Made by a program: the position numbers and the translations under genes. From an uncultured Actinomycetes bacterium (GTDB lineage Bacteria; Actinomycetota; Thermoleophilia; UBA2241): a stretch of DNA of 64,000 nucleotides. Shown piece after piece: positions 13,696 through 59,883 of the stretch. Numbering within the stretch: position 1 is the stretch's first letter; the number at the start of each line of letters is the position of its first letter. The DNA lies in assembly GCA_963767005.1 (NCBI GenBank), contig CAVYCN010000018.1, positions 1-64,000 on the forward strand, written 5' to 3'. The notes under the pieces were generated by a model. That model saw only the letters and a program-made list of their open reading frames with translations. It did not search any database and was not told the DNA's origin.

Positions 13696-13887
13696 CGTCC
13701 ACCTCCTCCTTGCGCTGTGTGCCCAGCGGCCGCCGCGCCCTATCACGCCGGCCGTCGCAGCGCCCGCTCGCCCCATCGTCGGCGCGCCCTGTCGCCCTCA
13801 CAGTCGGCACGCCACGACCGGCGCCGCGCGCCGGGCCGACCGCGCCGCCGCCGTGCACCACGAGCGTGGTTCGCAGGGGTTTTGTCC

Positions 13888-29691: not shown

Positions 29692-30957
29692 TCACGTCGC
29701 GCCCACTGTCGTGAAGCGCGCGGTCGACTCCTTGAGCGCCTCGATCACCGGCATCGGCTTGCCGGAGAGGAACTGCACCATGGCGCCGCCGGCCGTGCAG
29801 ACGTAGTCGAAACGGTCGCCAAGGCCGAAACGGTTGACGGCGCGCACGCTGTCGCCGCCGCCCAGGGCGCTGAAGCCCTTCGTGCCGGCCATCGCGTACC
29901 ACAGCACCTTGGTGCCGAGCTCTGTCTCGGGCTTCTCGAACACCCCGGCCGGACCGTTGGCAAAGACCGTGCCGCAGGCCGCGATCCAGGCGGCGTAGTC
30001 GGCGATCGTGTGAGCGCCGATGTCGACGATCTGCTCGGCGACCGGCAGATCGGCGACGGCCATCTCGCGGCGCGCCCCGCCGGCAACGACGGCGAGGTCG
30101 CTCGGCAGCACGATCTTCTCGCCGTGCTCGGCGAGGATCGTCTGCGATTCGTCGATGAACGGCTCGAGCTGGCTCTGCCTGATGAAGTCGAGCGAGGGCG
30201 CGCCGACATCGACGCCCGCCGCGACCAGCATGACGTTGGCCACGAGCCCGGCGGTGAGCACCCGGTCGACCATGCCGTCGCGCAGGGCGGCGGCCATCAT
30301 CGGGAAGGCCTCCTGGACCTTGGTGCCGCCCAGCAGGAAGACGCAGGGCCGGGCCGGCGCCGCGCGCAGCCGCGCCAGGTTCTCGTACTCGCGCTCGAAC
30401 AGCCGGCCCATGGCCGACGGCAGGAGCTGCTCGAAGCCGACCAGCGTGGGCTGCGAACGGTGGGCCGCGGCGAAGGCGTCGCAGACGTACAGCTCGGCAA
30501 GCGGCGCGAGCTTGCGCACGACCAGCGTCTTCGCCTGGTCCGCGGGGCTCAGCTTGAGCCTGTTCTCGAACAGCGTGAGCTCCTCGCCGCAGTACCTGAC
30601 GTTGTCGAGCAGCAGCACCTCCCCGTCGCCGAGCGCCCGCACCGCGTCGCGGGCGGCCGGCCCGCAGACGTCGTCGATGAAGGCGATAGGGCGGCCCACG
30701 AGCTCGGTCAGCACCGCGGCGTGCGGCTCGGTCGAGGCGTAGTTGTGGTACTCGAGGTCGCCGCCCTGGTGAGCGAGCAGCACCACCCGAGCGCCGCCCT
30801 CGGCGAGCTCACGCACGGTCGGCGCGCAGCCCCGGATACGGGTCGTGTCGGCGAGACCGCCACGCTCCGGGTCGAGCGGCGAGTTGATGTCGACCCGGCA
30901 GAGCACCGTGCGACCGGCGAGCTCGAGGTCGTCGAGCGTGTTGATGCCGTACTTCAT
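29692..30957 (-). CDS. pgk: Phosphoglycerate kinase, archaeal-type, divergent
   Basis: RVDINSP, DAFAAAHRSQPTLVGF, NGPAGVFE and GGGDS; AHQGG replaces the usual (S/A)HxGR. Confidence 0.85.
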   Translation of the reverse strand: MKYGINTLDDLELAGRTVLCRVDINSPLDPERGGLADTTRIRGCAPTVRELAEGGARVVLLAHQGGDLEYHNYASTEPHAAVLTELVGRPIAFIDDVCGPAARDAVRALGDGEVLLLDNVRYCGEELTLFENRLKLSPADQAKTLVVRKLAPLAELYVCDAFAAAHRSQPTLVGFEQLLPSAMGRLFEREYENLARLRAAPARPCVFLLGGTKVQEAFPMMAAALRDGMVDRVLTAGLVANVMLVAAGVDVGAPSLDFIRQSQLEPFIDESQTILAEHGEKIVLPSDLAVVAGGARREMAVADLPVAEQIVDIGAHTIADYAAWIAACGTVFANGPAGVFEKPETELGTKVLWYAMAGTKGFSALGGGDSVRAVNRFGLGDRFDYVCTAGGAMVQFLSGKPMPVIEALKESTARFTTVGAT

Positions 30958-30985
30958 GGCAGGCTCCCGCGGCCGGGCGGCGGCC

Positions 30986-32026
30986 TCAGACCGCCGTCGC
31001 GACGGCCGCGCTCATGCCGAGGTAGCCGTTGGTCAGACTGACGGCCTCGAGGCGGTCGCTCTGCAGCGACAGGGCGGCCCGTACGGCGTCCATGCTCTCG
31101 GGGATGACGACCGCTTCCTGCGGGATGTTGATCGCGAACATGAACTCGCGGCCGCTCTTGGCGATGGTCTCGTCGAAGACGGCGATCTCGTACATGTCGG
31201 CGCGCTTGTGACCGAGGTCGCGCGCGTAGCGGAACAGCGCCGAGTTGGAGTTGAAGCCGTCCGCGATCTTCACGACGCGGATGCGCGGATGCGCGTCGAA
31301 GAGCTCGAGGGCGCGCTCCTTGGTGATGTCGGCCTTGGTCGTCGCGCACACGTTGATGATGTGGCCGTGCGTGGTCGGCACGTGGACGAGCAGGCCGGTG
31401 GCCTCGATGTGCGGCATGATCGTCATGAGGTCGAGCGCCTGGTGGTTGGGCACCGGCTCGACCTGGGCGACGTCGACGAGGCCGCGATGCGTGTCGCCGG
31501 GGTCGGCCACGCGGCGTACGATCGTGACGATCACGCGCTCCACGCCGACCTCGCGGTCAAGGCAGTCGACGGCCCGGATCAGGCCGGTCGTGTTGCAGCT
31601 CGTGAGCTTCAGGTAGTCCTTGCCGACGCCCTTCTCGTAGTTGGCGTAGCCGTGAAAGAAGACGTCGACGATGTCGTTCTTCTCGCCGCCCTGGAAGACG
31701 GCCTTCACGCCGCGCGCCTGGTAGAGCTCCTTGTTCAGCCGGCCCACGCCGCCGGGCGTCGAGTCGAGCACGATGTCGACCTTGCCGAGCAGGTCGTCGA
31801 GCGTGCCCGACACGGGGATGCCGAGGGCGTCGAAGGCCGCCTTCTGCTCGGCCGCGACGACGTACAGCCGGTAGGGCATGCCGCACTCGTGCAGCGCCCT
31901 GATCGCCAGGGTCGGGGCGACGTCGACGACGCCGGCCAGCTCCATGTCGCCCTGCAGCGCGACGCCGTCGGCCAGGCGCTGGCCGATGACCCCGTAGCCC
32001 ACCACCGCCACGTTCGGCTTGCTCAT
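30986..32026 (-). CDS. Type II (archaeal-type) phosphorylating glyceraldehyde-3-phosphate dehydrogenase
   Basis: GYGVIGQRLADGV, FQGGEK, catalytic SCNTTGL, VRRVADP and QEAVVIPESMDAVRA. Confidence 0.88.
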   Translation of the reverse strand: MSKPNVAVVGYGVIGQRLADGVALQGDMELAGVVDVAPTLAIRALHECGMPYRLYVVAAEQKAAFDALGIPVSGTLDDLLGKVDIVLDSTPGGVGRLNKELYQARGVKAVFQGGEKNDIVDVFFHGYANYEKGVGKDYLKLTSCNTTGLIRAVDCLDREVGVERVIVTIVRRVADPGDTHRGLVDVAQVEPVPNHQALDLMTIMPHIEATGLLVHVPTTHGHIINVCATTKADITKERALELFDAHPRIRVVKIADGFNSNSALFRYARDLGHKRADMYEIAVFDETIAKSGREFMFAINIPQEAVVIPESMDAVRAALSLQSDRLEAVSLTNGYLGMSAAVATAV

Positions 32027-32221: not shown

Positions 32222-33586
32222 CTAGATGCCGAGCTGCTCTTCGACCACGCCGATCGACTCGTCGAGCACGCGCACGACCTCGTCGATCTGCTCCTTGCTG
32301 ATGATGAACGGCGGCGCCACGGCGTGGCAGTGACCGCCGCCCAGCAGGCGCACGAACACGCCGCGCTTGAAGGCCTCGTCGCGCACCTTGGCGGCCGCGC
32401 CCACCGCCGGCGGGAACCACTCCCTGGTCGCCTTGTCCTGCACGTACTCGATGCCGGCCACGAGGCCCACGCCGCGCACGTCGCCCACGATCGGGTGCTC
32501 GAGCAGCGTCTTCAGACCCGCCTGCATGTAGGCGCCGACCTCGGCGCAGCGCTCGACCAGGTGCTCGCGCTCGACGATCTCGAGGTTGGCGAGGCCGGCC
32601 GCCGAGCAGAGCGGATGGCCGTTGTAGGTGGCGCCGCTCATGAAGGCCTCGCCCGGGCCGCCCAGGAAGGCGTCGTAGACGTGGTCCTTGGCGCCCACCG
32701 CGCCGAGCGGCAGGTAGCCCGACGACAGGCCCTTGGCCAGGGTGATCAGGTCGGGATCGGAGCCGAACTGCTGAAAACCGAACCACGTGCCCGAGCGCCC
32801 GAAGCCGGTGATCACCTCGTCGTTCACCACGAGCACGTCGTTTGCCTTGCAGGTCTCGCAGACCAGCGGCCAGTACTCGGGCGGCGGTGGGATCACGCCG
32901 CCCGTGCCGATCATCGTCTCGCCGAGCATGGTGCCGACGTTCTCGGCGCCGTAGAAGGCGATCTCCTGCTCGACGACCTTGGCGCACTCCATCTTGCAGT
33001 CGTCGCCGTAGGTCTTGTTCCAGGCGCAGCGGTAGCAATAGGGCGCGCCGAGCTTGATGAAGCCGGGCAGCAGCGGCTCGAACTTCTGGCGGTTGACCGA
33101 GAGCCCCTGGGCACTCGTCGAGGTCATCGTGGTGCCGTGGTAGGAGCGGTCGCGGAACAGCACCATGTACTTGGTGCCGTTGCCGCGGTTGCGATGGTAC
33201 TGGCGCGCCATCTTGATGGCGGTCTCGACCGACTCGCCGCCGCCGAGGGTGAAGAACACGTGGTTCAGGTCGCCCGGCATGAGGCTCGCCACCTTGGCGG
33301 CGAGCTTGATCGTGGGCTCGTTCGCGATCTGGAAGATGTGGTAGATCGCGAGCTTGTCCATCTGCGCCTTGATGGCGTCGTAGATCTCGGTGCGTCCGTG
33401 GCCCACGTTGACGGTCCACAGCGACGCGAAGGCGTCGATGTAGGCGTTGCCCTCGGTGTCGTAGACCACGGCGCCTTCGGCGTGGTCCATGATGATCGGC
33501 TTCAGGCCCTGCATCTGCGTGAACGGCGGCCAGAGGTGGCCGAGAAAGTCGTCCTCCAGCCGCGGCGTCTGGCTTACCTCTGTCAT
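32222..33586 (-). CDS. Class III (omega-amine) aminotransferase
   Basis: SLWTVNVGHGR, GGESVETAIK, SYHG, DEVITGFGRSG and TLAKGLSSGY. Confidence 0.92.
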   Translation of the reverse strand: MTEVSQTPRLEDDFLGHLWPPFTQMQGLKPIIMDHAEGAVVYDTEGNAYIDAFASLWTVNVGHGRTEIYDAIKAQMDKLAIYHIFQIANEPTIKLAAKVASLMPGDLNHVFFTLGGGESVETAIKMARQYHRNRGNGTKYMVLFRDRSYHGTTMTSTSAQGLSVNRQKFEPLLPGFIKLGAPYCYRCAWNKTYGDDCKMECAKVVEQEIAFYGAENVGTMLGETMIGTGGVIPPPPEYWPLVCETCKANDVLVVNDEVITGFGRSGTWFGFQQFGSDPDLITLAKGLSSGYLPLGAVGAKDHVYDAFLGGPGEAFMSGATYNGHPLCSAAGLANLEIVEREHLVERCAEVGAYMQAGLKTLLEHPIVGDVRGVGLVAGIEYVQDKATREWFPPAVGAAAKVRDEAFKRGVFVRLLGGGHCHAVAPPFIISKEQIDEVVRVLDESIGVVEEQLGI

Positions 33587-33618: not shown

Positions 33619-34254
33619 TCAGCGGACGAGCGCCTTGGCGAGATCGACGGCCGCCGCCGCGTTGGCGCCGTAGCCGTCGGCCCCTACCTCATCGACGAAC
33701 GCCTGCGTGACGGGCGCCCCGCCGCAGACCACCTTGACGCTGTCGCGCAGGCCCTCGGCCTGGAGCAGCTTCACCGTGTCGCCCATCTTCGGGATGGTCG
33801 TCGTCAGCAGGCCGCTCATGCCGATGAGGTCGGGCTTGTACTCCTGCACGGCCGCGACGAACTGGGCCGGCGTGATCCCGGTGCCCAGATTGTGCACGGT
33901 GAAGCCGGCCCCCTCGAGCATCATGGCTACGAGGTTCTTGCCGATGTCGTGCACGTCGCCCTCGACCGTGCCGATCACGATCGTGGCGACGGCGCCGCTG
34001 TCGCCCTCGGCAAGGCGCGGCTTGAGGATATCGAGGGCGCCCTGCATGGTGCGCGCGCTGAGCAGAACCTCGGGGATGAACGACTCGCCGGCGCGCATGC
34101 GCTGCCCGACGACGTCCATCCCGGGCAGCAGGCCGCCGTCCAGGATCTCACGGGCGCCGACCCCCTGCTCGAGCAGTTGCCGCGTCAGCTCCTTCGCGCG
34201 CTCGCCGTCACCGGCGATGACCGCCTCTTTCACGTTCTCGTAGGCATCCGCCAT
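33619..34254 (-). CDS. Methyltransferase cognate corrinoid protein (MttC/MtbC-like)
   Basis: FIPEVLLSA cap domain; B12-binding GDVHDIGKNLV, SGLLTTT and GGAP motifs. Confidence 0.93.
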   Translation of the reverse strand: MADAYENVKEAVIAGDGERAKELTRQLLEQGVGAREILDGGLLPGMDVVGQRMRAGESFIPEVLLSARTMQGALDILKPRLAEGDSGAVATIVIGTVEGDVHDIGKNLVAMMLEGAGFTVHNLGTGITPAQFVAAVQEYKPDLIGMSGLLTTTIPKMGDTVKLLQAEGLRDSVKVVCGGAPVTQAFVDEVGADGYGANAAAAVDLAKALVR

Positions 34255-34354: not shown

Positions 34355-35842
34355 CTAGAAGGTCACCGCGGTCGCCTCGACGCCGAGCTCCTTCTCGGTC
34401 TCCTCGACGATCGCGCGCAGGCGCTCGAGCACCCCGGCCGGCAGCGGCGCCGGCTCGTGCGTGGCGAGCAGCCGGCGCGCCTCGGCCGTGGCGCTCGCAT
34501 ACAGGTCGGCGCCGCCGGCGGCGGCCCAGTCGTCGCGTACACGCCGGTCGATCAGCCTCGCCTGCGACTGCGAGCGCATGTGCTTGTACGTACTGTCGAG
34601 GCTCAGGAAGTCGCCCTGCGAGCCGACCTCGTGGATATCGTCGATCATCAGCAGCTCGTCGGTCACCGGGATGCCGCCGATCGTGAACTTGATGAGCCGC
34701 GCGAACTCGCAATCCATGAGCAGCTGACCGTAGTCGAAGGTGACGCCTGACTCGAGCATCCCCAGGCCGTAGATCAGGTTGGCCCCTGCCAACGCTGGAA
34801 GCAGGCCCGTGAGAGTCTTCTCGTGACCGGACTGCGCGTCACCGAGCTTGGCGTCGCCCTACGCACCGGCGACCCAGCTCGGCAGCAGGTAGAAGCGCGC
34901 GAGCTGGGCCACGGCCGCGTTGATCAGGCCGCACTCGGGGCTGCCGACCGAGGCCGAGGCGAGACGCAGGTCCATGGCCGTCGTCGAGCTGCCGTAGACC
35001 ACCGGCGCGCCGCGCCGAGTGAGCTGGGCCAGGGTGATGCCCGACAGCACCTCGGCGTTGTGGGTGACGAGCGTGCCCGACAGCGAGACCGGCGACGAGG
35101 CGCCCGCCATCGCCATGCTCAGCACGTTCACCGTGCTGCCGCTGCGGGCCGCGCCCATGATGATCTCGCAGCAGTCCTTCACCAGCTTGAGCGGGCTGAC
35201 CGGGCAGGTGATGAACGACACGAGCGGGCGGCGCCGCAGGGCGGCCGCGCCGCCCACGACCGCGGCCGCCATCTCGACGACGCGCTCGAGCAGGTGGCCG
35301 TTGATCGGGCCGATGAAGACGTGCTTGGTCGTGTTGGCGAAGATCGCCTCGGCGTTGTGCAGCGGCACCGCGTCCTGCGGCACGTCGTGCGCGCCGATCG
35401 GGCGCTCGACCACGTCGATCTCGGGCAGCGCGTCGATCAACCGGGTCGCCTCGGCGACGTCGCGCTTGGTCGGCTCGCGCAGCGCGCCGGTCTCGGGGTC
35501 GGTGACCTTGATGCCCTCGCCGAAGTTGGTGAAGCCGACGCGGCCCGGCTCGAGCACGATGTCGTTCTCGGGCACGCGCCCGCAGAGCGTGATGGACGAC
35601 GGCGCGCTGCGCACGGCGTCCTCGACCAGGTGGGCCGGCAGGCGCACGATGCGGGCGTCGCGCTCGACGTCGGCGCCGCCCGCCTCGAAGAGGTCGAGCG
35701 CGGCGTCGTCCTCGACCCACACGCCCGTCCGCCCCAGCACCTCGAGCGTCGCCAGGTGGATGTCCTGGATCTCGTCGTCGGTGAAGACGTTCAGGCTGAG
35801 CCCGCCAGACGCCTTGTGCCCGGCGTGCGGGTTCCTTCTCAT
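34355..35842 (-). CDS. mttB: Pyrrolysine-containing trimethylamine methyltransferase MttB homolog (in-frame TAG at 34859-34861, codon 328; 495 aa)
   Basis: ORF 34859..35842 continues in frame into 34355..34792, reading LPSWVAGA-(TAG)-GDAKLGDAQSGHEKTLTGLLPALAGANLIYGLGMLE, which is the MttB Pyl context. Confidence 0.9.
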
Positions 35843-35971: not shown

Positions 35972-37405
35972 CTAGTGCTCCCGTCCGTGGTCCAGCGCCG
36001 GCTCACGCACCAGGCCGGTCTTGCGCTTGAGCCGTTCCACACAGTTGATCCTGATGTCGAGCAGCTCGGCGATGCGGGCCTTGGCCTCGAGGCCCTTGGC
36101 CACACCCGGCACGGCGGTCACCGTGCCGATGTCGAGCTCCTCGCGCAGGGTGCGCATGAGGGTCGAGTCGGACAGGTCGGACACGCCGACCCCGAGCTTG
36201 TCGGCCACGTATGCCTTCGCCTCGGGGAGCCTCATCTTTCTGAGCTGCATCCTGGCCACCAGATCTCCAGCGGTCTTGATGCCGCCGATCGACGAGGCAA
36301 GCGCGTGCGCCATGCCCATGCCGTTCGGGTCGCCGGTACCCACCTATAACCCGTCGGCGCGGCCGATCTCGACCATCGCCGCGCTGGCTCGCGTGACCAT
36401 GTCGATGGGCGAGACCTCGAACATGGGCACGCCGCCGACGCCGTTGCCGACGTTCGGGTGGATCGGGATCGTCGCCTCGGCGGTGCAGGCCTGCACGAAG
36501 GTCACCGCGCGCGCCACGTTCCAGGCGCACGACTTCTTCGAGTTGTTGTTGACGACCGGCCCGAAGATGGCGGCGCCGGCCTTCTCGACGACCTTCACCT
36601 GCTGGTGCGGCCAGAGGCCGGCCAGGCGCGTGCCGTCGTACTCGAGCTCGCCGTGGAAGCCGAGCACGTTCTCGGCCGCCATGCCGATCTGGACGGCCAT
36701 GTCGGTGGTGCTCGAGATGTGCTCGCAGGCGCGCAGGGTGGCGAGGAACTCGGCGTCGCCGGTCGAGGCCACCGTGTCGTAGTTGATGCCGTCGGCGGCC
36801 ACCTCGACCATGCGCTCGGACAGCCAGATGGTGTCGGCCTGGCAGACCTCGAGCGCCTCCTCCTGCGTGCGCCGTGCCTCGTCGATCTTGCCCAGCGGCA
36901 GCAGGTCGGACGGGTTCTCGAACGAGCCGTCGGGCCGGTAGTAGAGGCCGAGGTTCGGCATGAAGCCGTAGAGCAGCGGCAGGATGGTGATGTGCTGGAG
37001 CAGCTCCATGTGCTCCTGCTCGACCGTAGCGATGAACTTGCAGGGCTTCACGGAGTAGTCGAGGTGACCGACCTCCATCGAGTCGAAGGCGAAGGCGGTC
37101 TCGAACAGGCGGATCGCCTGCTCGCGGCTGATCGGCGCGGCGATGCCGCTCGACAGGCGCGACGAGCAGAGCGTGTTGACCGAGCCGTCCTTGCTCATGA
37201 CCGCCTCGTGGCCCCGCTCCACGCCCCAGATCCGCTGAGGGCTGGCGAACATGTCCTCGAGGTAGTCGAGCTCGTTCTCGCAGAGCGGCGGCATCTTGCC
37301 CCTCGCGGCGGCTGCCTCCGTGCCCTCGACGAGGTCGCGACGCAGGTCGTCACGACTCATCTGCACGGTGGCGCCGTCCCCCATGCGCGTCGTGATGGTG
37401 CTCAC
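35972..37405 (-). CDS. mtbB: Pyrrolysine-containing dimethylamine methyltransferase MtbB homolog (in-frame TAG at 36344-36346, codon 354; 477 aa)
   Basis: N-terminal TRMGDG and [12 protein letters not shown]. It reads [10 protein letters not shown]-(TAG)-VGTGDPNGM...[13 protein letters not shown]...[12 protein letters not shown], matching the MtbB Pyl context. GTG start with a GGAGG RBS. Confidence 0.9.
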
Positions 37406-37580: not shown

Positions 37581-38297
37581 CTAGCCTGCCGCTGCGCCGT
37601 CCCGCGCGGCGAGCCCCCTGAGCTCGGCCATCGAGTTGCGCAGCAGCAGCTCGAGGGCCGAGAGCGGGCGCCGCAGGTCGAAGTGCTCAGGGTCGAGCCC
37701 GGCCTGGATCGACAGGCCGTCGGGGATCGCGGCGATGAGCTCGGCGAGGCCGGTCAGGATCTCGTGCTGGCGGCCGTCAGCGCCCTCGGCGGCGAGGCCC
37801 AGCCACTCGAGGTTCTGGCGATACCACCAGCGATACAGCTCGAACATGCGCTCGCGCAGCTCCGGATGGCGGAACGCGTGCGGCAGGATGTCGAAGAAGC
37901 CGCGGAACGAGTCGGCCCCGACGATCATGCCCTCGATGCCGATCATGGCCGCGTGCAGGCGGTCGTCGGCGCTCACTGTGCGCAGGTCGGCGGCCAGGCG
38001 CAGGCACTCGTCGTGGATGAGGGCGTCGACGACGGCGGCCACCAGGCCGGCCTTGTTGCCGAAGTTGTAGCGGATCGAGGCCTTGTTGACGCCGGCTTCG
38101 GTCGCCACGTTCTCGAGCGTGAGTGCCCCGTAGCCGCGCTTGGCGAGCAGCCGCGACGCCGCTTCGAGGATCTTCTGCGCCGTCTCGGGCAGCGTCGACA
38201 GCGGGTCCTCGAACGGCACCCACTTGCTCGCCTTCTTCGGCGCCGGCGCGGTCCCCCCCGCGCCGGACCTGGTCGTCTGTCGGGCGGCGCCGCTCAT
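37581..38297 (-). CDS. TetR/AcrR family transcriptional regulator
   Basis: HTH ILEAASRLLAKRGYGALTLENVATEAGVNKASIRYNFGNK; ATGA overlap with the upstream methyltransferase. Confidence 0.9.
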   Translation of the reverse strand: MSGAARQTTRSGAGGTAPAPKKASKWVPFEDPLSTLPETAQKILEAASRLLAKRGYGALTLENVATEAGVNKASIRYNFGNKAGLVAAVVDALIHDECLRLAADLRTVSADDRLHAAMIGIEGMIVGADSFRGFFDILPHAFRHPELRERMFELYRWWYRQNLEWLGLAAEGADGRQHEILTGLAELIAAIPDGLSIQAGLDPEHFDLRRPLSALELLLRNSMAELRGLAARDGAAAG

Positions 38298-39742
38298 GAC
38301 GTCGCCGCGATCGCCGCGTCCGTCACGGCGCAGATCTCGCGCAGGGCGGCGAGCTGGTCGTCGCTCAGGTGCGGGGCGCGGCCGGCCCGCGCGGCGAGGA
38401 CCTCCTCGACGCGCGCGACGGCCGCATCGAGCTCGGTCGTGCCCTCGGCGCGCCAGGCGTCGTAAGGCAGACGCGAGGCGACACGCGGCATGAAGTGCAC
38501 ACCGTTCCTGATCGCCTGGCGCGTGTCCTTCTCCTTCAAGAAGTTGCCGCCGATGCCCACGCGCTCCATCATATCGCGGGCGATGGTCGCCGGGCTGATC
38601 TCGATCTCGCCGAGCAGCCGGCGGATCATCGCCACGATCTCGGCATCGACCACGATCTGCGGCAGGTAGAGCGTGTTGACCGAGTCGATCAGGCCCATGC
38701 CACCGCTCAGCAGGTCGGAGCCGGCCGCCACCGTGACGAAGGCCTTGAGCGCCTTCTCGAAGCCGTCCTGCACGCCGAGATGCTTGGCGTCGGTGCCGAG
38801 GCCCGGCGTCGTGACCGGCAGGCCGAGGTCGTGCAGCACCTCGGTGAAGGCCGCGTCGTACAGGGCCCCCTCGAGGGCGCCGTAGCAGATGCTCGTCGAG
38901 CGCATGTCGAGGATGGTGCCGGACGGACCGCAGATCAGGCGCGCGCCGGGCGACAGCACCTGCAGGGCGGCGCAGGCGCCGAGCAGCTCGGCCAGGCCCT
39001 GGACGACCACGCCGGCCAGCGTGGCGGGCGCCGTCGCGCCCGAGATCGGCACGGTGTAGATCTCGATCGGTGTGCCGTGGTCGGCCAGGCGCGCGTGCAC
39101 GTCGAGCAGGCGACCGTCGAGCGACAGCGGCGAGGCCACCGTGAACAGGGTGCTGATCCGGGGCCGCCGGCGAAACTCCTCGAGGCTGCCGCAGAGCACC
39201 TCGGCGATCGCCAGCACGAGCTCGACCTCGCTCGGGCAGTCGACGAAGGTGACGTGCTTGTCGGTCTCGGTGAGGACCGTGTAGTACTCGATCTTCTCGC
39301 GCGCTTCGAGCGCCACGTCGTTGGCCGTCACCGTGGTCCACTGCACGTCGAGCTCGGGCGTCTCGTCGAGCAGGATCGTGGCCTCGCGCAGGTCGCGCAG
39401 GGTCGAGGGGCGGTGCTCGCCGCTACGGTAGTCGAGCGTGAGCGCGGCGCAGCCGGAGGGCGAGAAGCGCGACCTGCCGCCCTCGCGCAGCACGACGTCG
39501 TGCTCGGGCGTGGCGCCGCCCAGCACGATCTCGCGCGGGCACTGCCGGCGCAGCCGATCGACGAGCTCTGCCGGGAACCGCACGACGCCGGTCTCGTCGT
39601 CGACCGCCGCGCCGGCCTCGCGCAGCCGCGCCAGGTGCCGGGTACCGGCCATCCTCAGACCGACCCGCTCGAGCAAGGCGAGCGCCTCCTCGTAGACGAG
39701 GTGCTTCTCGGCGTCGCTCATCCAGGTCGTGCGGGCTTGCAT
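38294..39742 (-). CDS. Non-pyrrolysine MttB-superfamily corrinoid methyltransferase
   Basis: VASPL and SGATAPATLAG; Gly at the Pyl-equivalent site (LPVTTPGL-G-TDAK). Confidence 0.88.
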   Translation of the reverse strand: MQARTTWMSDAEKHLVYEEALALLERVGLRMAGTRHLARLREAGAAVDDETGVVRFPAELVDRLRRQCPREIVLGGATPEHDVVLREGGRSRFSPSGCAALTLDYRSGEHRPSTLRDLREATILLDETPELDVQWTTVTANDVALEAREKIEYYTVLTETDKHVTFVDCPSEVELVLAIAEVLCGSLEEFRRRPRISTLFTVASPLSLDGRLLDVHARLADHGTPIEIYTVPISGATAPATLAGVVVQGLAELLGACAALQVLSPGARLICGPSGTILDMRSTSICYGALEGALYDAAFTEVLHDLGLPVTTPGLGTDAKHLGVQDGFEKALKAFVTVAAGSDLLSGGMGLIDSVNTLYLPQIVVDAEIVAMIRRLLGEIEISPATIARDMMERVGIGGNFLKEKDTRQAIRNGVHFMPRVASRLPYDAWRAEGTTELDAAVARVEEVLAARAGRAPHLSDDQLAALREICAVTDAAIAATS

Positions 39743-48597: not shown

Positions 48598-49632
48598 TCA
48601 GCAGATGCGCGGCAGCAGCTCGCCGACCGGCATATCGATCACCCGGCGGGTGCCGAACGCGGTGCGCAGCGCGACCCGGCCGCGATGCCCCTCGACGATC
48701 GTGCCGATGCACGCTGCGCGGGCGCCCTCGGGGCGCCCGCGCAGCGCCGCGAGCACCGCGCCGGCCGCGTCGGGGGCCACGGCGAACAGCATCTTGCCCT
48801 CGTTGGCAAGGGCGAGCGGGTCGTAGCCGAGCAGCTCGCAGGCGGAGCGCACCGCCGGCGACACCGGCAGCGCCTCCTCGTCGACCTCGACCCCGAGGCC
48901 CGCCTCTTCGGCGAGCTCGGCGAGCACGGTGGCCAGACCGCCGCGAGTAGGGTCGCGCATGAAGTGCACGCCGCCGCCGGCGGCCGCCAGGGCGGCCTCG
49001 ACCAAGTGCCAGAGCGGGGCGCAGTCGCTGCGCACGTCGAGGCTCAGGTTGAAGTCGCCGCGGGCGGCCACCACGGCCAGGGCATGGTCGCCGAGCGTGC
49101 CCGAGATCAGCAGCGCGTCGCCGAGGGCGACGGCCGCCGCCGAGACCTCGTGGTCGACCACGATCTCGCCCACGCCGGTCGTCGTGATGAACAGGCCGTC
49201 CGCGGCGCCGCGCTGCACCACCTTGGTGTCGCCGGTCACGATCGCGACCGGCGCCTCGGCGGCGGTCGCGGCCATGCTGGCGCAGACCTCGTGCAGGCGG
49301 GCCAGCTCGAAGCCCTCTTCGATGACGAAGGCGGCGGCGAGGCCCAGCGGCCTCGCCGCCGCCGTCGCCAGGTCGTTCACGGTGCCGGCCACCGCCAGGC
49401 GGCCGATGTCGCCGCCGGCGAAGGTGAGCGGCTGCACGACGTGGGCGTCGGTGGTGAGCGCCACGCGGCCGCTCACCGCCAGGGCGGCGGCGTCGTCGAG
49501 GCGCGCCAGCACGGGATTGTCGAAGTGGCGTAGGAACACGTCGCGCACCAGGTCGCGATACAGGCGGCCGCCGCTGCCGTGCCCGAGCAGGACGCGCGGC
49601 TCGCCGTCGGCCGCGCGTCCGCCGTCAGACAT
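48598..49632 (-). CDS. hypE: Hydrogenase maturation protein HypE
   Basis: HGSGG, GTVNDLA, GDTKVV, MRDPTRGG and C-terminal LPRIC. Confidence 0.95.
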   Translation of the reverse strand: MSDGGRAADGEPRVLLGHGSGGRLYRDLVRDVFLRHFDNPVLARLDDAAALAVSGRVALTTDAHVVQPLTFAGGDIGRLAVAGTVNDLATAAARPLGLAAAFVIEEGFELARLHEVCASMAATAAEAPVAIVTGDTKVVQRGAADGLFITTTGVGEIVVDHEVSAAAVALGDALLISGTLGDHALAVVAARGDFNLSLDVRSDCAPLWHLVEAALAAAGGGVHFMRDPTRGGLATVLAELAEEAGLGVEVDEEALPVSPAVRSACELLGYDPLALANEGKMLFAVAPDAAGAVLAALRGRPEGARAACIGTIVEGHRGRVALRTAFGTRRVIDMPVGELLPRIC

Positions 49633-50725
49633 CGCCGTCCTCCGGCTCCTCGATCGCCCGATAGCGGAAGTGCGCGGCGCAGGAGCCCTCGCTCGACACC
49701 ATGCAGGCGCCGACCGGCGTCTCGGGCGTGCAGCGCCGTCCGAACAGGGCGCACTGCGCGGGGTCGATCAGACCGCGCAGCACCTCGCCGCAGCGGCACC
49801 CGCGCGGCTCGATCGGCTCGCCGGGGTCGACGGAGAAGCGTTCCTCGGCGGCGAGGTCGCGGTACTCGGCGGCGAGGCGCAGACCGGAGCCCGGGATCGG
49901 CCCGAGACCGCGCCAGACCGCGTCGCAGGGCTCGAACACGCGCGCGAGGAGCTCCTGGGCGACGCGGTTGCCGGCCGGCGCCACGGCGCGCCGGTAGCCG
50001 TTCTCGATCGCCGGCCGGGCCTGCCGGGCGAGCATGAGCAGCGCCTCGAGCACGTCGTCGGGGCCGAAGCCGGCGACCACCCCGCCGACGCCGTAGTCGG
50101 AGACGAGGAACCGGTAGGCGTCGCTGCCGGTGACCACACTGACGTGGCCCGGCAGGATGAAGCCGTCGATGCGCGACTCGCCCGCGTCGAGCAGCGCTCG
50201 CAGGGCGCCCGGCATCGTCTTGTGCAGGCTGAGCACGGAGAAATTGGCGAGGTGGCGCTCGCGGGCCAGCACGACGGCGCCGGCCACGGTCGGGGCGGTC
50301 GTCTCGAAGCCGATGCCGGCCAGCACGAACTGGCGGTCGGGCTCGGCGGCCGCCAGGTCGAGCGCGTCGAGCGGCGAGTAGACCACGCGCACGTCGGCCC
50401 CGGCGGCGCGCTCGCGCGCGAGGCTGCTACGCGAGCTCGGCACGCGCACGAGGTCGCCGAAGGTGACGATCGTGACCTCGGGCAGGCGCGCGAGGGCGAC
50501 GACGACATCGAGGTCGCCGACGGCCGTCACGCAGACCGGACAGCCGGGCCCGGACACCAGGCCCACGCCCGGCGGCAGCAGGTCGCGCAGACCGTAGCGC
50601 GAGATCGCCATCGTGTGGGTGCCGCAGACCTCCATGTAGGTGCGGTCTCCCCCACCGACGCTCGCCAGGGCCGCGGCGAGACCGGCGATGCGCGCGGCGT
50701 CGGGCGTTCTGGTCGGCCCGGCCAC
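49625..50725 (-). CDS. hypD: Hydrogenase maturation protein HypD
   Basis: MEVCGTHT, GPGCPVC, GFETT, PGHVS and CMVSSEGSCAA. Confidence 0.95.
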   Translation of the reverse strand: MAGPTRTPDAARIAGLAAALASVGGGDRTYMEVCGTHTMAISRYGLRDLLPPGVGLVSGPGCPVCVTAVGDLDVVVALARLPEVTIVTFGDLVRVPSSRSSLARERAAGADVRVVYSPLDALDLAAAEPDRQFVLAGIGFETTAPTVAGAVVLARERHLANFSVLSLHKTMPGALRALLDAGESRIDGFILPGHVSVVTGSDAYRFLVSDYGVGGVVAGFGPDDVLEALLMLARQARPAIENGYRRAVAPAGNRVAQELLARVFEPCDAVWRGLGPIPGSGLRLAAEYRDLAAEERFSVDPGEPIEPRGCRCGEVLRGLIDPAQCALFGRRCTPETPVGACMVSSEGSCAAHFRYRAIEEPEDGDV

Positions 50726-50732
50726 GGCGCTC

Positions 50733-51026
50733 CTAGATCGAGGGGTCTTCGGGGTGCCCGTCGTCGGCCGTGTCCGGCTCGCCGGACACCCTCGGCTGGT
50801 CGGGCTCGGCGCCCAGGCCGGCGATCTCCTCGAACAGGGCGAGCCGCTCGGCGGCGTCGTCGGAGTCGAGCACGGCGATGGCAAAGCCGGCGTGCACGAG
50901 CACGTAGTCGCCGACGCGCGCGTCGGGCACGAGCATCAGGCTGGTCCGCTGGACCAGGCCGTCGGCCTCGATCGTGGCGTCGGGGCCGTCGGTGGCCGTG
51001 ATGCGCATCGGGATGGCAAGACACAT
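50733..51026 (-). CDS. hypC: Hydrogenase chaperone HypC
   Basis: MCLAIP and GDYVLVHAGFA. Confidence 0.95.
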   Translation of the reverse strand: MCLAIPMRITATDGPDATIEADGLVQRTSLMLVPDARVGDYVLVHAGFAIAVLDSDDAAERLALFEEIAGLGAEPDQPRVSGEPDTADDGHPEDPSI

Positions 51027-51044
51027 GGGGATCAGCGCTCCAGC

Positions 51045-53606
51045 TCAGTCGGGCGGGGTGTCGAGCAGCCCGCGTCTGCGCAGGTCAGTATAGCCCGCGA
51101 TCACGGCCTGCCCAAACGCCAGACCGCCGTCGTTGGCCGGCACTCGGGCGTGCGTGAGCACGGTGAAGCCGGCGGCGGCGAGGGCGTCCTCGCACAGGTC
51201 GGTCAGCAGGCGGTTCTGGAAGACCCCGCCCGAGAGCGCGACCGTGGTGAGGCCGGTCGCGGCCCGCGCCCGGCGGCAGAGGTCGAGCACGATGGCGGTC
51301 ACGGTGGCGTGCAGGCGCGAGCCGACGGCGGCGGGCGTCGCGTGGGCTGCGAGGTCGTCGAGGACGCCGTCGAACAGGGCGGCGAGCCGCACGACGTGCG
51401 GCTCGCCGCCCTCGCCGGCACCCGCCGCGACCGCGAAGCCGTACGGCGCCGCGCCCGCCGCCGACACCATCTCGAGCTCGATCGCCGCCTGGCCCTCATA
51501 GGTGACCGCGGCGCGCACGCCGGCGAGGGCCGCGACCGCGTCGAACAGGCGGCCGCAGCTCGAAGTGAGCGGCGCGTTCACGCCGGCGCCGACCTGGGCG
51601 GCCACGGCCGCAAGCTCGTCGTCGGCCACGGCGAAGCCGGAGCGGCGCGCGCGCTCGACGCCCTCGTCGCCGAGCAGCGCGAGCAGCCAGCCGGCCGCCG
51701 TGCGCACCGGCCGCCTGATGGCGAGGGCGCCGCCGGGGAGCGGCAGGTACTCGAGGTGGCCGAGACGGCGATAGCCGAGCAGGTCGCAGAGCAGCACCTC
51801 GCCGCCCCAGAGCGCGCCGTCGGCGCCGTAGCCGAGGCCGTCCATGCTCACGCCGATCGCCGGGCCCTCGACCCCGTGCTCGGCCAGGCAGGCCGCCACG
51901 TGGGCGTGGTGGTGCTGCACGCCCACCGCCACGGCGCCGGTCGCGGCGATCCGCGCGAGCGCGTACTTCGTGGCGAGGTACTCCGGGTGCAGGTCGTAGG
52001 CCACGACCTCGGGAGACAGACGGAAGAGGTGCTCGTACACGGCGACGCTCGCCTCGAAGTGCTCGAGCGTCTCGATGTTCTCGAGGTCGCCGATGTGCTG
52101 CGACAGGAAGGCGTTGCGCTCGCGCGTCAGGCAGAAGGTGTTCTTGAGCTCGGCGCCGCAGGCCAGTACCTGGGGCAGCTCGCGCGCCAGCTCGATCGGG
52201 AACGGCGCGTAGCCGCGCGAGCGCCGCACGAGACGCGGGCGCTCGCGCCGCACGACCGCCACCGAGTCGTCGTAGCGGGCCGCGATGTCACGGTCGTGCA
52301 CGAGGTGATAGTCGGGGATGCCGGCCAGACGCCCCAGCTCGGCGGCGTCGCGCACGATCGGCTCCTCGGCCAGGTTGCCGCTCGTCATGACCAGCGGCCG
52401 CCCGGCCGCCTCGAGCAGCAGGATGTGCAGCGGCGTATAGGGCAGCATCACGCCCAGGTGGCGCTGCCGCACGGCGACCTCGGGGCTGATCTCGGGCGCG
52501 CGGCCGCCGTCCGGCGGCCGCGCGCCGGCCACTGAGGGTCCTGATGGGAGTCGCGCCTCGGCGCCGGCCGCGACCTCCGCTCCCGGAGTAAGGTCGGGAC
52601 GCACCTCGCGCCAGTCGACCAGGACGATCGGATGCTCGACCGCCGTGAGCAGCTCGCGCTCGGCCGGCGTCGTGCGACAGTGGGCCGCGACCTGGTCGAG
52701 GTCGCGGAACATCACGGCGAGCGGCTTGTCGGGCCGGCGCTTGCGCTCCTTCAGACGGCGCACGGCGGCGCCGTCGGTCGCGTCGCAGGCCAGGTGAAAG
52801 CCGCCCAGACCCTTGACCGCCACGATGGCGCCGGCGCGCAGCAGCTCGGCGCTGCGGGCGATGGGCTCGTAGCCGCCGCCGGCCAGCACCACGCCAGCCG
52901 CGCCGGCTCCCGCCCGCATGTCGACCAGCGTCACCTGCGGCCCGCAGACCGGGCAGGCGTTGGGCTCGGCGTGGAAGCGCCGGTCGGTCGGGTCGGTGTA
53001 CTCGCGCCGGCAGGCCGGGCACATCGGAAAAGCGCGCATGGTGGTGCGCTCGCGGTCGTAGGGCAGGTCGTCGATGATGGTGAAGCGCGGCCCGCAGTTG
53101 GTGCAGTTGGTGAACGGGTAGCGGTACCGCCGATCGGCCGGGTCGAGCAGCTCGGCACGGCAGTCGTCGCAGGTCGCGATGTCGGGCGAGACGAGCTGGT
53201 AGGCCGCGGGGTCGGCGGCGCTCTCGAGGATGACGAACGCCGTCGCGCCCTCGGCCGCCACCTCGTCCTCGTCGAGGGCGGCGATGTAGGCGCGCGGCGG
53301 CGCCTCGCGCGGCAGCGCCGCACAGAAGGCCGCGACTGCGGCGGCGTCGCCCTCGACCTGGATCTCGACACCGGCCGACGTGTTGCGCACCCAGCCGTGC
53401 ACGCCGAGACGCACGGCGAGGTTGTAGACGAACGGTCGAAAGCCGACGCCCTGCACCACGCCGCGCACGCGCAGGAAGCGCGCGGCCGGGCCGCCGGCGG
53501 GACCGGTGTCGCCGGCGGGACCGGTGTCGCCGGCGCTCACGCCGGCGGCGCCGGGGTCGCCGTGCCGTTCAGCCTCCCCCCGCTCGCGGGGCGTCAGGCC
53601 GGGCAT
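51045..53606 (-). CDS. hypF: Carbamoyltransferase HypF
   Basis: GVVQGVGFRPF, zinc fingers CTNCGPR and CPVCGP, QHHHAH and NDGG. Confidence 0.95.
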   Translation of the reverse strand: MPGLTPRERGEAERHGDPGAAGVSAGDTGPAGDTGPAGGPAARFLRVRGVVQGVGFRPFVYNLAVRLGVHGWVRNTSAGVEIQVEGDAAAVAAFCAALPREAPPRAYIAALDEDEVAAEGATAFVILESAADPAAYQLVSPDIATCDDCRAELLDPADRRYRYPFTNCTNCGPRFTIIDDLPYDRERTTMRAFPMCPACRREYTDPTDRRFHAEPNACPVCGPQVTLVDMRAGAGAAGVVLAGGGYEPIARSAELLRAGAIVAVKGLGGFHLACDATDGAAVRRLKERKRRPDKPLAVMFRDLDQVAAHCRTTPAERELLTAVEHPIVLVDWREVRPDLTPGAEVAAGAEARLPSGPSVAGARPPDGGRAPEISPEVAVRQRHLGVMLPYTPLHILLLEAAGRPLVMTSGNLAEEPIVRDAAELGRLAGIPDYHLVHDRDIAARYDDSVAVVRRERPRLVRRSRGYAPFPIELARELPQVLACGAELKNTFCLTRERNAFLSQHIGDLENIETLEHFEASVAVYEHLFRLSPEVVAYDLHPEYLATKYALARIAATGAVAVGVQHHHAHVAACLAEHGVEGPAIGVSMDGLGYGADGALWGGEVLLCDLLGYRRLGHLEYLPLPGGALAIRRPVRTAAGWLLALLGDEGVERARRSGFAVADDELAAVAAQVGAGVNAPLTSSCGRLFDAVAALAGVRAAVTYEGQAAIELEMVSAAGAAPYGFAVAAGAGEGGEPHVVRLAALFDGVLDDLAAHATPAAVGSRLHATVTAIVLDLCRRARAATGLTTVALSGGVFQNRLLTDLCEDALAAAGFTVLTHARVPANDGGLAFGQAVIAGYTDLRRRGLLDTPPD

Positions 53607-54466
53607 CGGAACTCGTGGTCCTCCTCGAGGCGCACGACGTGGCAGCCGGGGCAGCGCATGGTATAGGTGTGTCCGATCGCCACGTCGTGCGTCGCGCAGA
53701 AGTCGATCTGCACGCCGAGCACCTCGAGCTCGTCCTCGTCGCAGACCCCGCAGGGCGTGAGCACGACGTCGCCGAGAGCGTAGCTCTGTCGCAGCCGGGC
53801 CATGGCCTCGCGCGCCCCGGGGTGAAAGGCAAGATCGGCCTCGAGCTCGGCGCCGGTCGAGGCCACCGATTCGGGCGTCGCCGCGGCGACCTGGCCCGCC
53901 AGATAGGCGAGGCGGTAGCCGCGCCGCCGCAGCAGCTCCTGAAAGCGGCAGCCCGCCGCGCAGCGCTCGCCGGCCAGGGCGGCGGCGTGCAGGCGCAGCA
54001 CGTCGGCACTCGCCGCGAAGGCGCGCAGGTCGACCTCGTCGACGGGTTCCGGGCTGCGCGTCTTGGGCGGCCGCCCGCGCCGCCGCGGCTCGTGCTCGCG
54101 CACGAGGCCGAGCAGACCGATGTCGGGCGCCGTGCGCAGGGCCTCGCCCACCCGGTCGAGCCAGTCCGGCGCGAAGGCGAGATCGTCCTGCACACGCACG
54201 ATGATCTCGCCGCTCGCCATGGGAAAGGCCGTATCGATGCCGCAGTGGGCCATCTCGGGCTCGCGCGCTTCGAGGGCGACCGCCGCGACTTCGCCGCGCA
54301 GGTACTGCCGCGAGAGGTAGTCGAGGACGTCGTCGCGGTGCTGCGCGGCGAGCACGACCACCTCGGCGTCGCCGGGGATCGAGTCGTGCAGGCGGTGGAG
54401 GGCGGCGCGCAGCGCCGCGACGCCGTGCGTCGAGACCAGGGCCACGCTGACGGGGGTCTCGGGCAT
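53594..54466 (-). CDS. Hypothetical protein: degenerate GT2/GT-A-like domain plus C-terminal Cys-rich metal-binding domain
   Basis: ASGEIIVRVQDDLAFAPDWL, RRRGRPPK and CGVC...CATH...CPGC...CPA; tightly coupled inside the hyp operon. Confidence 0.7.
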   Translation of the reverse strand: MPETPVSVALVSTHGVAALRAALHRLHDSIPGDAEVVVLAAQHRDDVLDYLSRQYLRGEVAAVALEAREPEMAHCGIDTAFPMASGEIIVRVQDDLAFAPDWLDRVGEALRTAPDIGLLGLVREHEPRRRGRPPKTRSPEPVDEVDLRAFAASADVLRLHAAALAGERCAAGCRFQELLRRRGYRLAYLAGQVAAATPESVASTGAELEADLAFHPGAREAMARLRQSYALGDVVLTPCGVCDEDELEVLGVQIDFCATHDVAIGHTYTMRCPGCHVVRLEEDHEFRCPA

Positions 54467-54468
54467 GG

Positions 54469-54954
54469 TCAGGCGACGGGCGAGAGGCTCGGCGGACAGG
54501 CGCCGCTGGCGAGCTCCTCGCCGATCAGGGCGACCACGCGCTCGGCGGCCGCGGCCACTGGCGCCGAGAGCTCCTCGCCGAAGGTCTCGACGTCGACCGC
54601 CTCGACCGTGTAGACGACGACCTCGCCCGGCATGTCGTAGCCGAGCTGCTCGCCGAGCTCGAGCGCGGTGCCGAGGTGGATGCTGTGCGCCGAGCCGTAG
54701 CGATGGCCGCCGCGAAACGCGGCGGCGTCGACCCTGCCGATGGTGCCCGGCGCGGCGCCGCTGCGCAGGGCGTCGATAATGATCACCTTCGTGAAGCCGC
54801 GCACGAGCTCGAGCAGGCGAAGACCGCCGACCTCGCTCTCGGCGACCTCCACGTCGCTCGGCATGGGGAGCTCCCGAAGACGATGGGCCACGACTAAGCC
54901 GAGCCCGTCGTCGGAGAGGATCGGGTTCCCCATGCCGAGGACGAGGGTGGTCAT
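54469..54954 (-). CDS. [NiFe]-hydrogenase maturation protease
   Basis: LGMGNPILSDDGLG, IIDA and SAHS. Confidence 0.9.
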   Translation of the reverse strand: MTTLVLGMGNPILSDDGLGLVVAHRLRELPMPSDVEVAESEVGGLRLLELVRGFTKVIIIDALRSGAAPGTIGRVDAAAFRGGHRYGSAHSIHLGTALELGEQLGYDMPGEVVVYTVEAVDVETFGEELSAPVAAAAERVVALIGEELASGACPPSLSPVA

Positions 54955-54957
54955 CTG

Positions 54958-56427
54958 CTACATGTTCCTCTTGGCCGTCGCGACGACCTCGCGGGTCGTC
55001 TCGCTGCGCACCGTGATCTCGAGCGGCATCTCGCCGGGCAGTGTGTGCGTGGCGCAGCCGAAGCAGGGATCGTAGGCGCGGAAGGCCATCTCGATCATGT
55101 TGAGCGTGCCTTCCTTGATCTCCTTGCCGCCGGTGAGGAGCCCCTCGGCCGCCTTCTTGAGCGACATCGAGATGGCGGCGTTGTTGTTGGTCGTGCCGAC
55201 GATCAGGTTGACGGCCGTGACCATGCCCTTCTCGTCGGTCTTGTAGTGATGGAAGAGCGTGCCGCGCGGCGCTTCGACCACGCCGACGCCCTCGCCGACG
55301 ATGCCCGTCGGGATGTTGCGCACGTCGGGACTGATGATGTCGGGGTCCTGCGCCAGCTCGTGGGCCCGCTCGGCCGCGTAGAGCAGCTCGACGAGGCGTG
55401 CCCAGTGGGTGGCGAGGGTGGCGTGCACCGGCTTGCCGCCGAGGGTCTCGTAGAAGCGCTCGTACTCGGCCTGGGCGAGCGGCGTCGCCATGCCGTCGGA
55501 GGCGTTCAGGCGGCTCAGCGGCGAGGCCCGGTACACACCCGAGTCCTTGCCGTCGACGAAGCCCTTCCAGCCGACCGACTTGAGGTACGGGTAGACCAGG
55601 TAGCTGTAGGGCTCGACGTGCTCGGCGAGGTGGGCGAGGTAGTCCTTGCCCTCGAACTTCTCGAGCTCGGTGCCGTCGGGGCCCACCACGCGGATCTGGC
55701 CGTCGTAGAAGTTGACCTTGTTGTTCTCGTCGACCATGCCCATGTAGTAGGTCTCGTGAGTGAAGGCGTCGCTTTTGATCAGGTCGACGTAGTCGCTGTT
55801 GCCGAGCACGACGTCGTTGAACAGGCCGATCGAGAACTTGGCGAACTCGACCTGCTCGGCCGTGACCTGCACCATGCGGTCACGCTGCTCGGCGGTGATC
55901 GCGTGGCTCACGCCGCCCGGCAGGCCCATCACCGGGTGGATCTGCTTGCCGCCGATCATGCTGATGAGCTCGGCCGCTTCGGCGCGCAGCTTGATCACGG
56001 CGCCGCCGGTCTCGAGGCCGACCTTGTTGATGACGCCCAGGATGTTGCGCTTGGCCGGGTCGGACTCGGGCCCCATGATGAAGTCGGGACCGGCCAGGAT
56101 GTAGAAGTGCGTGGTGTGGTCGGTCACGTAGAAGATGTTGTAGAGCAGCTCGCGTAGCTTGCGGCCGGCGGGCGCGACCTCGACGCCGAAGACGTTGTCG
56201 ATGGCCTTGGTGGCGGCCATGTGGTGCGCCTCGGGGCAGACGCCGCAGATGCGCGGCGTGATGCGCGCGAGCTCCTCGACGGGACGGCCCAGGCAGAAGC
56301 GCTCGAAGCCGCGCAGCTCGGGAATCTGAAAGTAGACGTTCTGGACCTTGTTGTCGTCGTCGACGAAGATCTCGATCTTGCCGTGACCCTCGAGCCGGGT
56401 GATGGGATCGACGCTTATCTTCTTCAT
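54958..56427 (-). CDS. mvhA: Group 3c [NiFe]-hydrogenase large subunit MvhA
   Basis: PITRLEGHGK, L1 RICGVCP and L2 RAYDPCFGCATH with a cleavable tail. Confidence 0.93.
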   Translation of the reverse strand: MKKISVDPITRLEGHGKIEIFVDDDNKVQNVYFQIPELRGFERFCLGRPVEELARITPRICGVCPEAHHMAATKAIDNVFGVEVAPAGRKLRELLYNIFYVTDHTTHFYILAGPDFIMGPESDPAKRNILGVINKVGLETGGAVIKLRAEAAELISMIGGKQIHPVMGLPGGVSHAITAEQRDRMVQVTAEQVEFAKFSIGLFNDVVLGNSDYVDLIKSDAFTHETYYMGMVDENNKVNFYDGQIRVVGPDGTELEKFEGKDYLAHLAEHVEPYSYLVYPYLKSVGWKGFVDGKDSGVYRASPLSRLNASDGMATPLAQAEYERFYETLGGKPVHATLATHWARLVELLYAAERAHELAQDPDIISPDVRNIPTGIVGEGVGVVEAPRGTLFHHYKTDEKGMVTAVNLIVGTTNNNAAISMSLKKAAEGLLTGGKEIKEGTLNMIEMAFRAYDPCFGCATHTLPGEMPLEITVRSETTREVVATAKRNM

Positions 56428-57859: not shown

Positions 57860-57886
57860 TGTCGTCTCCTTATGGTCGCGACCCGC

Positions 57887-59869: not shown

Positions 59870-59883
59870 CTCCTCCTCGCCGG

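Follow-up and report, generated by a model that had tools for sequence, protein, structure and literature searches.

A candidate hairpin signal at the pyrrolysine codons of methylamine methyltransferase genes in a Thermoleophilia bacterium

The locus described here raises two questions: whether an mttB gene interrupted by an in-frame amber codon is a broken gene or one that is read through with pyrrolysine (Pyl), and, if it is read through, how the cell tells that TAG from the TAGs that end genes. A 2007 paper listed as open the question of how bacteria separate UAGs meant for Pyl from UAGs meant as stops (PMC1976440). The window, meaning the whole stretch of 64,000 nt that was analyzed, carries tetR, mtbB, mttB, a corrinoid protein gene, and an aminotransferase gene in that order (Table 1), and the mtbB-mttB-corrinoid order recurs in 8/11 loci, the closest ones compared.

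The interrupted mttB gene and its host

A first-pass annotation, made from the DNA letters, had joined two ORFs of 327 and 145 aa into one gene split by a TAG at the Pyl site of trimethylamine methyltransferases, with a full-length 495-aa MttB as the readthrough product. The ORF list and the frame translation bear this out: the frame 35842..34355 (minus strand) has the TAG at 34859-34861 as its sole internal stop, in the peptide context SWVAGA-amber-GDAKLGDAQSGHEKT. The readthrough product scored 714.7 bits against TIGR02369 (cut-off 525) over residues 16-483, and codon 328 aligned with the X/K column (Pyl334) of PDB 7xcl/7xcm, as the annotation had supposed. The alignment also placed Gly108 and Tyr358 as the equivalents of Gly110 and Tyr364, two residues of MttB for which full conservation is stated (PMC9842639). 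Methanosarcina barkeri MttB (7XCL, 7XCM, 7XCN; PMC9842639) aligned with the window protein over residues 3-485 (412 bits), and the two share the Pyl column, the glycine and tyrosine equivalents, and an adjacent corrinoid gene; the window protein differs in having Glu at the Thr111 position, a bacterial host of 71% GC, and tetrahydrofolate as its predicted methyl acceptor.

Table 1. Features of the window discussed in the text
Feature	Positions	Strand	Basis
Class III aminotransferase, 3' of the corrinoid gene	32222..33586	-	
Cognate corrinoid protein, MttC/MtbC-like	33619..34254	-	B12-binding domains
mttB, Pyl-type trimethylamine:corrinoid methyltransferase, 495 aa on readthrough	34355..35842	-	TIGR02369 profile and structure alignment
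Rfam PYLIS_3 (RF02510) match, 70.4 bits	34762..34861	-	Covariance model
Predicted 6-bp hairpin, AGGG loop, +66 to +81 nt from the mttB amber codon, loop A at +72	34778..34793	-	
In-frame amber codon 328 of mttB, Pyl334 equivalent	34859..34861	-	Alignment to solved MttB and relatives
Biased codons GGT-GCG before the amber codon	34862..34867	-	Ortholog codon counts
mtbB, Pyl-type dimethylamine methyltransferase with a terminal TAG, 477 aa when read through	35972..37405	-	TIGR02368
Rfam PYLIS_2 (RF02509) match, 51.7 bits	36247..36346	-	Covariance model
Predicted 7-bp mtbB hairpin, AGAT loop, loop A at +78, inside the PYLIS_2 match	36256..36273	-	
TetR-family regulator, 5' of mtbB	37581..38219	-	tetR-mtbB-mttB order in 8/11 loci
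MttB-family paralog, non-Pyl; a sense codon fills the Pyl column and the hairpin is absent	38294..39721	-	

In one explanation, mttB is a pseudogene whose TAG arose by nonsense mutation or through an assembly error, and a small number of in-frame stops and frameshifts unrelated to this one do occur in the assembly. The annotation had named a sense codon in close homologs as the sign of such a mutation; instead, TAG fills the Pyl column in 78/78 related loci (from the best 80 of 280 candidates, species genomes), or in 83 alignments from the same candidates when tandem paralogs are counted. Given this conservation, and with search peptides that excluded the Pyl site, the amber codon is neither chance nor a sequencing error. 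With TAG in the same column of 7 paralogs as well, and with the full pyl system described below, the pseudogene explanation is refuted by conservation and retains next to no probability; the window gene is almost certainly a genuine and intact Pyl-type mttB. Its terminal stop (34355-34357), which the annotation did not mention, is also TAG, and the stop position is identical in seven of the eight closest orthologs, where it is TAG, TGA, or TAA.

The neighboring mtbB holds a second amber codon absent from the annotation, at 36344-36346 and preceded by GGG-TTA. This gene clears the TIGR02368 cut-off (369.1) on readthrough only, with 497.7 bits against 355.2 for the truncated ORF. Fusion of MtbB to MttB by readthrough was considered and rejected: the window linker is in frame and open, but among nine orthologous pairs a single linker is in frame and open, another keeps the frame but contains a stop, and the other seven are out of frame, so that the open linker is attributable to chance. 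The genome as a whole has 16 amber methyltransferase genes, comprising 7 mttB (among 41 MttB-family matches), 8 mtbB (all eight MtbB matches), and 1 mtmB (among four MtmB matches, the other three being non-Pyl homologs). Three of the amber mtbB paralogs are clustered outside the window at G000:C18:96347-103340, where G000 is this genome. Among the relatives, an MttB paralog of 59% identity at L329:8888 (also in L021 and L022) lies in tandem with amber copies, carries Leu in place of Pyl, lacks the hairpin, and is a natural loss of Pyl.

The annotation had held that a genome without pyl genes would speak against Pyl. The genome searched here (3.44 Mb, 100% complete, 4.87% contamination) has both tRNA-Pyl(CUA) and tRNA-Sec, and pylSn, pylSc, two copies of pylB, pylC, and two copies of pylD, each protein scoring over its curated cut-off; separate pylSn and pylSc genes with pylT(CUA) and pylBCD are what marks a bacterial Pyl system. 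The pyl cluster lies at C3:236-246 kb of a 458-kb contig, amid core genes. No in-frame TAG was seen at the start of pylB, pylSn, or pylSc. Across 25 related loci, a GerMN lipoprotein gene adjoins pylSn in 15, and an unnamed radical SAM gene (L009:11186-12061; G000:C3:239185-240063 in this genome) lies beside it in 18, often with a corrinoid protein. A second cassette of slightly lower GC (G000:C4:545000-554400) contains an amber mttB, a corrinoid protein, pylB, and pylD without pylC, along with two amino-acid-permease-like genes and a non-Pyl mttB. A formate dehydrogenase-like gene with an in-frame TGA and a stem-loop after it was also seen (G000:C19:163119, C4:374520, and C4:389248 are listed for this observation and SelB); together with SelB and tRNA-Sec, it makes use of all 22 amino acids by the organism likely.

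GatB shares 88% identity with that of a MAG titled Thermoleophilia and 48% with that of Desulfocicer, which places the host in the Thermoleophilia (Actinomycetota). In a sample of the class, pylSc was found in 51/55 genomes of the host family, 9/55 of a second family, and 0/190 others, and pylSn in 23/26, 2/26, and 0/98 genomes of the same three groups. In this soil and wetland family, use of the 22nd amino acid is thus close to fixed, and its members may be rivals of methanogens for methylamines. The annotation's claim that an actinobacterial host uses this amino acid therefore stands with respect to lineage and pyl genes, but the novelty that it implied was overstated, since Pyl use in Actinobacteria is already in print. 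PylRS was reported in two Actinobacteria, one of them a "Thermoleophilia bacterium," in the supplement of Guo et al. 2022 (PMC9630628), as restated in the available part of a review (PMC11764691), and Actinobacteriota MAGs from Stordalen Mire express Pyl mttB and mtbB (Ellenbogen et al. 2023, 10.1101/2023.07.09.548291). These MAGs share both the trait and the lineage with our host; an mttB ortholog of 82% identity lies in a MAG titled bog_752, and the preprint names a genus Bog-752. The parts of the two reports available to us do not give the family-wide spread (51/55), the 16-gene set, the TAG share, or a cis signal. Given a TAG at the Pyl position and complete Pyl machinery in the host, the internal mttB TAG is very likely decoded as pyrrolysine, by the host's own tRNA-Pyl and split PylRS.

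TAG as a stop and the codons before pyrrolysine

In a genome-wide code that reads TAG as Pyl (code 34), TAG would be rare as a stop and would serve as a sense codon in many genes. According to a simple and crude purpose-made gene caller, TAG ends 891/2727 called genes (32.7%) and 33% of those in the most codon-biased tenth, a share above the 1 to 27% given for Pyl archaea in the available text of PMC12626013. The window mttB and mtbB each have an internal Pyl TAG and a terminal TAG; across the genome, 4/16 Pyl genes and also pylSn, pylSc, and pylC end in TAG. An apparent enrichment of TAG in Pyl-containing genomes was dropped after a second sample disagreed. The first sample gave 36.9% with Pyl versus 20.9, 21.6, and 25.7%, and the second gave 20.4 and 31.3% with Pyl and 31.4% without, all resting on about 100-175 genes per genome. 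Because the ranges with Pyl (20-37%) and without it (21-31%) overlap, we conclude that TAG is not depleted and that no effect of Pyl is shown.

These counts bear on a genome-wide reassignment of TAG, whether to one of the standard amino acids or to Pyl as in the code 34 of archaea. The TAG endings of 4/16 Pyl genes and of pylSn, pylSc, and pylC might be taken in its favor. A codon that ends nearly a third of genes, including the most codon-biased, does not fit code 34, however, TAG interchanges with TGA and TAA at one position among orthologs, and RF1 is present in the genome. Neither self-comparison nor a search of paralogs and codon scores yielded a further convincing TAG-spanning family, and the conserved amber codons found in this way were all in methylamine methyltransferases. 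Reassignment is consequently extremely unlikely. Other candidate Pyl proteins at C3:12771, C13:18131, C15:12166, and C2:653139 lack the hairpin described below and were rejected because they look like a nonsense change or gene ends; one of the in-frame TAGs in the genes at G000:C3:12771 and C13:18131 stands opposite a Trp of a paralog, and these two are probably nonsense changes or errors.

Another account is that Pyl-tRNA competes with RF1 at any UAG, with the outcome set by Pyl supply. The archaeal model, as proposed for Methanosarcina, needs no signal (PMC13663744 and PMC12626013, in the parts available), and Pyl insertion is likewise said to need no insertion element (a 2026 paper, PMC13663744, and an E. 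coli result cited in PMC3639795, both available in part). Against this, the in-frame run after an ordinary TAG has a median of 66 codons, and unselective readthrough would lengthen about 880 proteins by such runs. Plain competition also leaves unexplained the rare codons immediately before the Pyl TAG. Leu in this position is encoded by TTG or TTA in 12/12 genes versus 1/69 ordinary TAG stops, and these codons make up 2.1% of all Leu codons in the genome. The same holds among relatives for mtbB (50/51) and mtmB (12/12, this genome included). Desulfocicer mtbB has CTG in 2/2 cases, so the TTR rule is not universal. In the actinobacterial mttB orthologs, the Gly at -2 is GGT in 53/62, a codon that accounts for 7% of Gly codons genome-wide, and the Ala at -1 is GCG in 56/56.

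The downstream hairpin and its possible roles

Downstream of the Pyl TAG, a predicted hairpin places its loop A at +72 in mttB (AGGN), +78 in mtbB (AGAY), and +114 in mtmB (AGGN), an offset that varies by gene family. The strongest silent-site constraint among 330 mttB positions, measured in 62 actinobacterial genes from the best 80 of 280 candidates with 18 loci titled as other phyla set apart, fell at codons +23 (TTG 61/62) and +24 (GCA 61/61); among 234 mtbB positions in 51 genes, it fell at -1 and +26 (GGA 51/51). The hairpins are thus built by the most constrained silent codons, +23 and +24 in mttB and +26 in mtbB. We defined a hairpin rule as an AG[AG]N loop starting at +60 to +120 on a stem of 5 bp or more. 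The rule was tuned on the same genes, with a first window (+66 to +81) that took in 15/16 sites and was then widened to admit mtmB, and in this form it matched 16/16 Pyl sites, 21/879 ordinary TAGs, 34/1711 TGAs, and 42/3000 random internal codons. At 6 bp or more, the counts were 15/16 Pyl sites versus 7/879 ordinary TAGs, and the hairpin and the rare -1 codon occurred together at no ordinary stop.

Comparison with relatives followed the same line. The hairpin is present in 79/82 Pyl-mttB genes versus 0/72 non-Pyl homologs, the latter including seven paralogs without the amber codon that are 42-59% identical and retain the AL[AS]GAN peptide (0/7), and it is absent from all 29 non-Pyl paralogs of this genome (0/101 amber-less genes in all) and from the terminal TAGs of the window mttB and mtbB. 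In Desulfocicer (Desulfobacterota) and the second Thermoleophilia family, hairpins at the same offset occur in 8/8 mtbB; amber mttB from these groups have it at +72 in 9/14 and at +75 in one, and in four the closing pair is open. Among 80 metagenome mttB selected with a pattern whose end lies upstream of the hairpin, 50 passed the strict rule. A quick tree of 74 rows (the six short rows were kept out of it and counted with the main group) set apart a branch of 18 in which 2/18 have the full stem, and the four sequences closest to M. barkeri (about 95% alike) have none (0/4), this clade being labelled by similarity only. Within host-family mtmB, an inner pair is mismatched in 7/12 and loop A is absent in 1/12.

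The stems covary, although the sequences are related and the counts overstate independence. Among 133 distinct mttB sequences, both positions of the outer pair +66:+81 are silent and the pair reads G-C in 109 sequences and A-U in 19; the closing pair is broken in 11, and the loop starts with A in 132. Among 58 mtbB sequences, +72:+87 shows four Watson-Crick pair types, several pair types occur at three silent-site pairs, and one G.U pair is invariant (58/58), which points to RNA. When the window was aligned with 62 metagenome loci, 95.9% of cells paired versus 23-54% for slid registers, and both-side stem changes numbered 18 versus 3.3 in shuffles. By parsimony, the mttB tree has 9 double and 9 breaking changes, and the mtbB tree 14 double and 7 breaking ones; mttB +67:+80 had six single breaking changes. 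Folds of 129 nt gave a z of -2.53 for mttB and -0.15, not unusual, for mtbB. From these comparisons, the downstream hairpin appears, with high probability, to be a selected RNA structure.

Shared ancestry offers another origin, in which a donor of lower GC supplied the codons after the TAG and the hairpin is accidental. The genes are indeed related and probably moved laterally between Desulfobacterota and Thermoleophilia (61-65% identity). However, mttB GC3 is 0.91-0.98 over codons 59-319 and dips to 0.78-0.87 at 320-355 and 365-373, the stem has undergone repeated compensatory changes, and the same loop type sits on stems of differing sequence in MttB, MtbB, and MtmB. We regard the donor account as largely refuted and very unlikely.

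It is fairly probable that the internal TAG is decoded as Pyl with the hairpin and the rare upstream codons marking it for readthrough, in a host that ends about a third of its genes with TAG. The hairpin, together with the rare codons, may show the ribosome where to read through, and it is slightly more likely than not to act as a signal favoring Pyl insertion at the expense of termination by RF1. The main rival pairs plain competition with a hairpin that protects the mRNA from Rho or nucleases in the stretch past the amber codon, where ribosomes are sparser, or acts in feedback regulation. The hairpin begins at least 66 nt from the codon at a variable offset, as protection would allow, and any role tied to partial termination would also account for its loss in amber-less paralogs, but simple protection needs no conserved loop sequence. 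We consider this rival possible but, on the whole, doubtful. The recoding signal that we favor can be put to a sharp test, since a marked TAG shares its mRNA with an unmarked one and the mark could be erased by silent substitutions. A portable signal of this kind for site-selective amber suppression would serve genetic code expansion.

With a conserved loop at a distance of 72-114 nt from the codon, a protein reader seems likelier than steric stalling. A candidate hairpin-binding factor was sought beside pylSn in 25 loci and none was found, no extra EF-Tu-like gene was found by motif, a single SelB-like gene was found, and the hairpin showed no clear likeness to tRNA-Pyl by eye. The EF-Tu (tuf) gene itself was absent from a six-frame motif search despite the stated 100% completeness, so absences call for caution and the assembly may be incomplete. 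That free-standing PylSn reads the hairpin is a guess, and an improbable one. More broadly, we propose tentatively, and expecting that it may well fail, that a SECIS-like AG[A/G]N hairpin of separate origin in mttB, mtbB, and mtmB, a rare P-site codon, and a dedicated reader, possibly PylSn, could mark Pyl codons in TAG-rich bacteria; Pyl decoding in these bacteria would then be site specific, whereas in archaea it is ambiguous or genome-wide.

In bacteria, the SECIS directly follows UGA and is served by a dedicated elongation factor, SelB. The present case is alike in that an in-frame stop is marked by a hairpin in coding sequence (partly described in PMC1976440, as available), and it differs in that the hairpin lies 66-123 nt from the stop and a single SelB-like gene was found. 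According to the available text of the same paper, Zhang and Gladyshev sought a common RNA element in bacterial Pyl genes and found none (PMC1976440). The Olavius delta-1 symbiont that it describes resembles our host in pylT, pylSn, pylSc, pylBCD, Sec machinery, and several Pyl methyltransferases, with eight Pyl proteins reported in that part versus 16 here. The source of PYLIS_2 and PYLIS_3 (PMC3639795) states, in the part available, that mttB lacks a common structure and that the families differ; here, a single loop type is common to mttB, mtbB, and mtmB, with covariation and with loss in amber-less paralogs. Both Rfam matches in the window exceed their gathering scores, although much of the score may stem from coding sequence. 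The PYLIS_2 structure includes a distal mtbB hairpin with an aGAc loop that agrees with ours, whereas the PYLIS_3 structure line differs and does not draw the covarying mttB hairpin. A search of the literature with little subscription coverage found, among the papers listed, none on a loop common to the Pyl methyltransferase families. What sets this case apart is the candidate site-specific decoding signal common to three unrelated enzyme families, the Pyl trait itself being already known in the lineage.

Inferred metabolism and neighboring genes

By analogy with established MttB chemistry, the enzymatic steps can be proposed with near certainty. PylBCD would make Pyl from lysine, and PylSc and PylSn would charge tRNA(CUA), roles described in the available parts of PMC13663744 and PMC9630628. 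Pyl328 would activate trimethylamine with the aid of Gly108 and Tyr358, the methyl group would pass to the adjacent corrinoid protein, and di- and monomethylamine would be handled by MtbB and MtmB. Gene content suggests the later steps. An AcsE-like methyl-THF transferase would hand the methyl on to tetrahydrofolate; genes for MetF, Fhs, glycine decarboxylase, and a single CODH-family protein are present as well. No acetyl-CoA synthase, which an acetogenic (Wood-Ljungdahl) methylotroph would have, matched in this genome (TIGR00316, PF03598), one being present in 38/60 family genomes; the methyl group is thus probably oxidized on tetrahydrofolate through MetF and Fhs, with electrons perhaps passing to hydrogenases. 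A RACo/AcsV-like (ASKHA-type) corrinoid activator on C4 scored below the AcsV and RamA cut-offs. Glycine reductase gave no match in 12 genomes, in which no control gave a match either, and a promoter scan found nothing.

The methyltransferase set is very large for a genome in which no acetyl-CoA synthase was found. Elsewhere in the window, positions 113-7719 and 48598-61319 hold a Group A FeFe hydrogenase with hydG/hydF and a cluster of hdr, mvhD/G/A-like, and hypFDE genes. An archaeal-type (class II) glyceraldehyde-3-phosphate dehydrogenase adjoins phosphoglycerate kinase at 29692-32026, and an NHEJ DNA ligase D lies at 10867-13776. A tRNA-Thr followed by a tyrosine recombinase at 61844-63066 is probably the edge of an integrated element.
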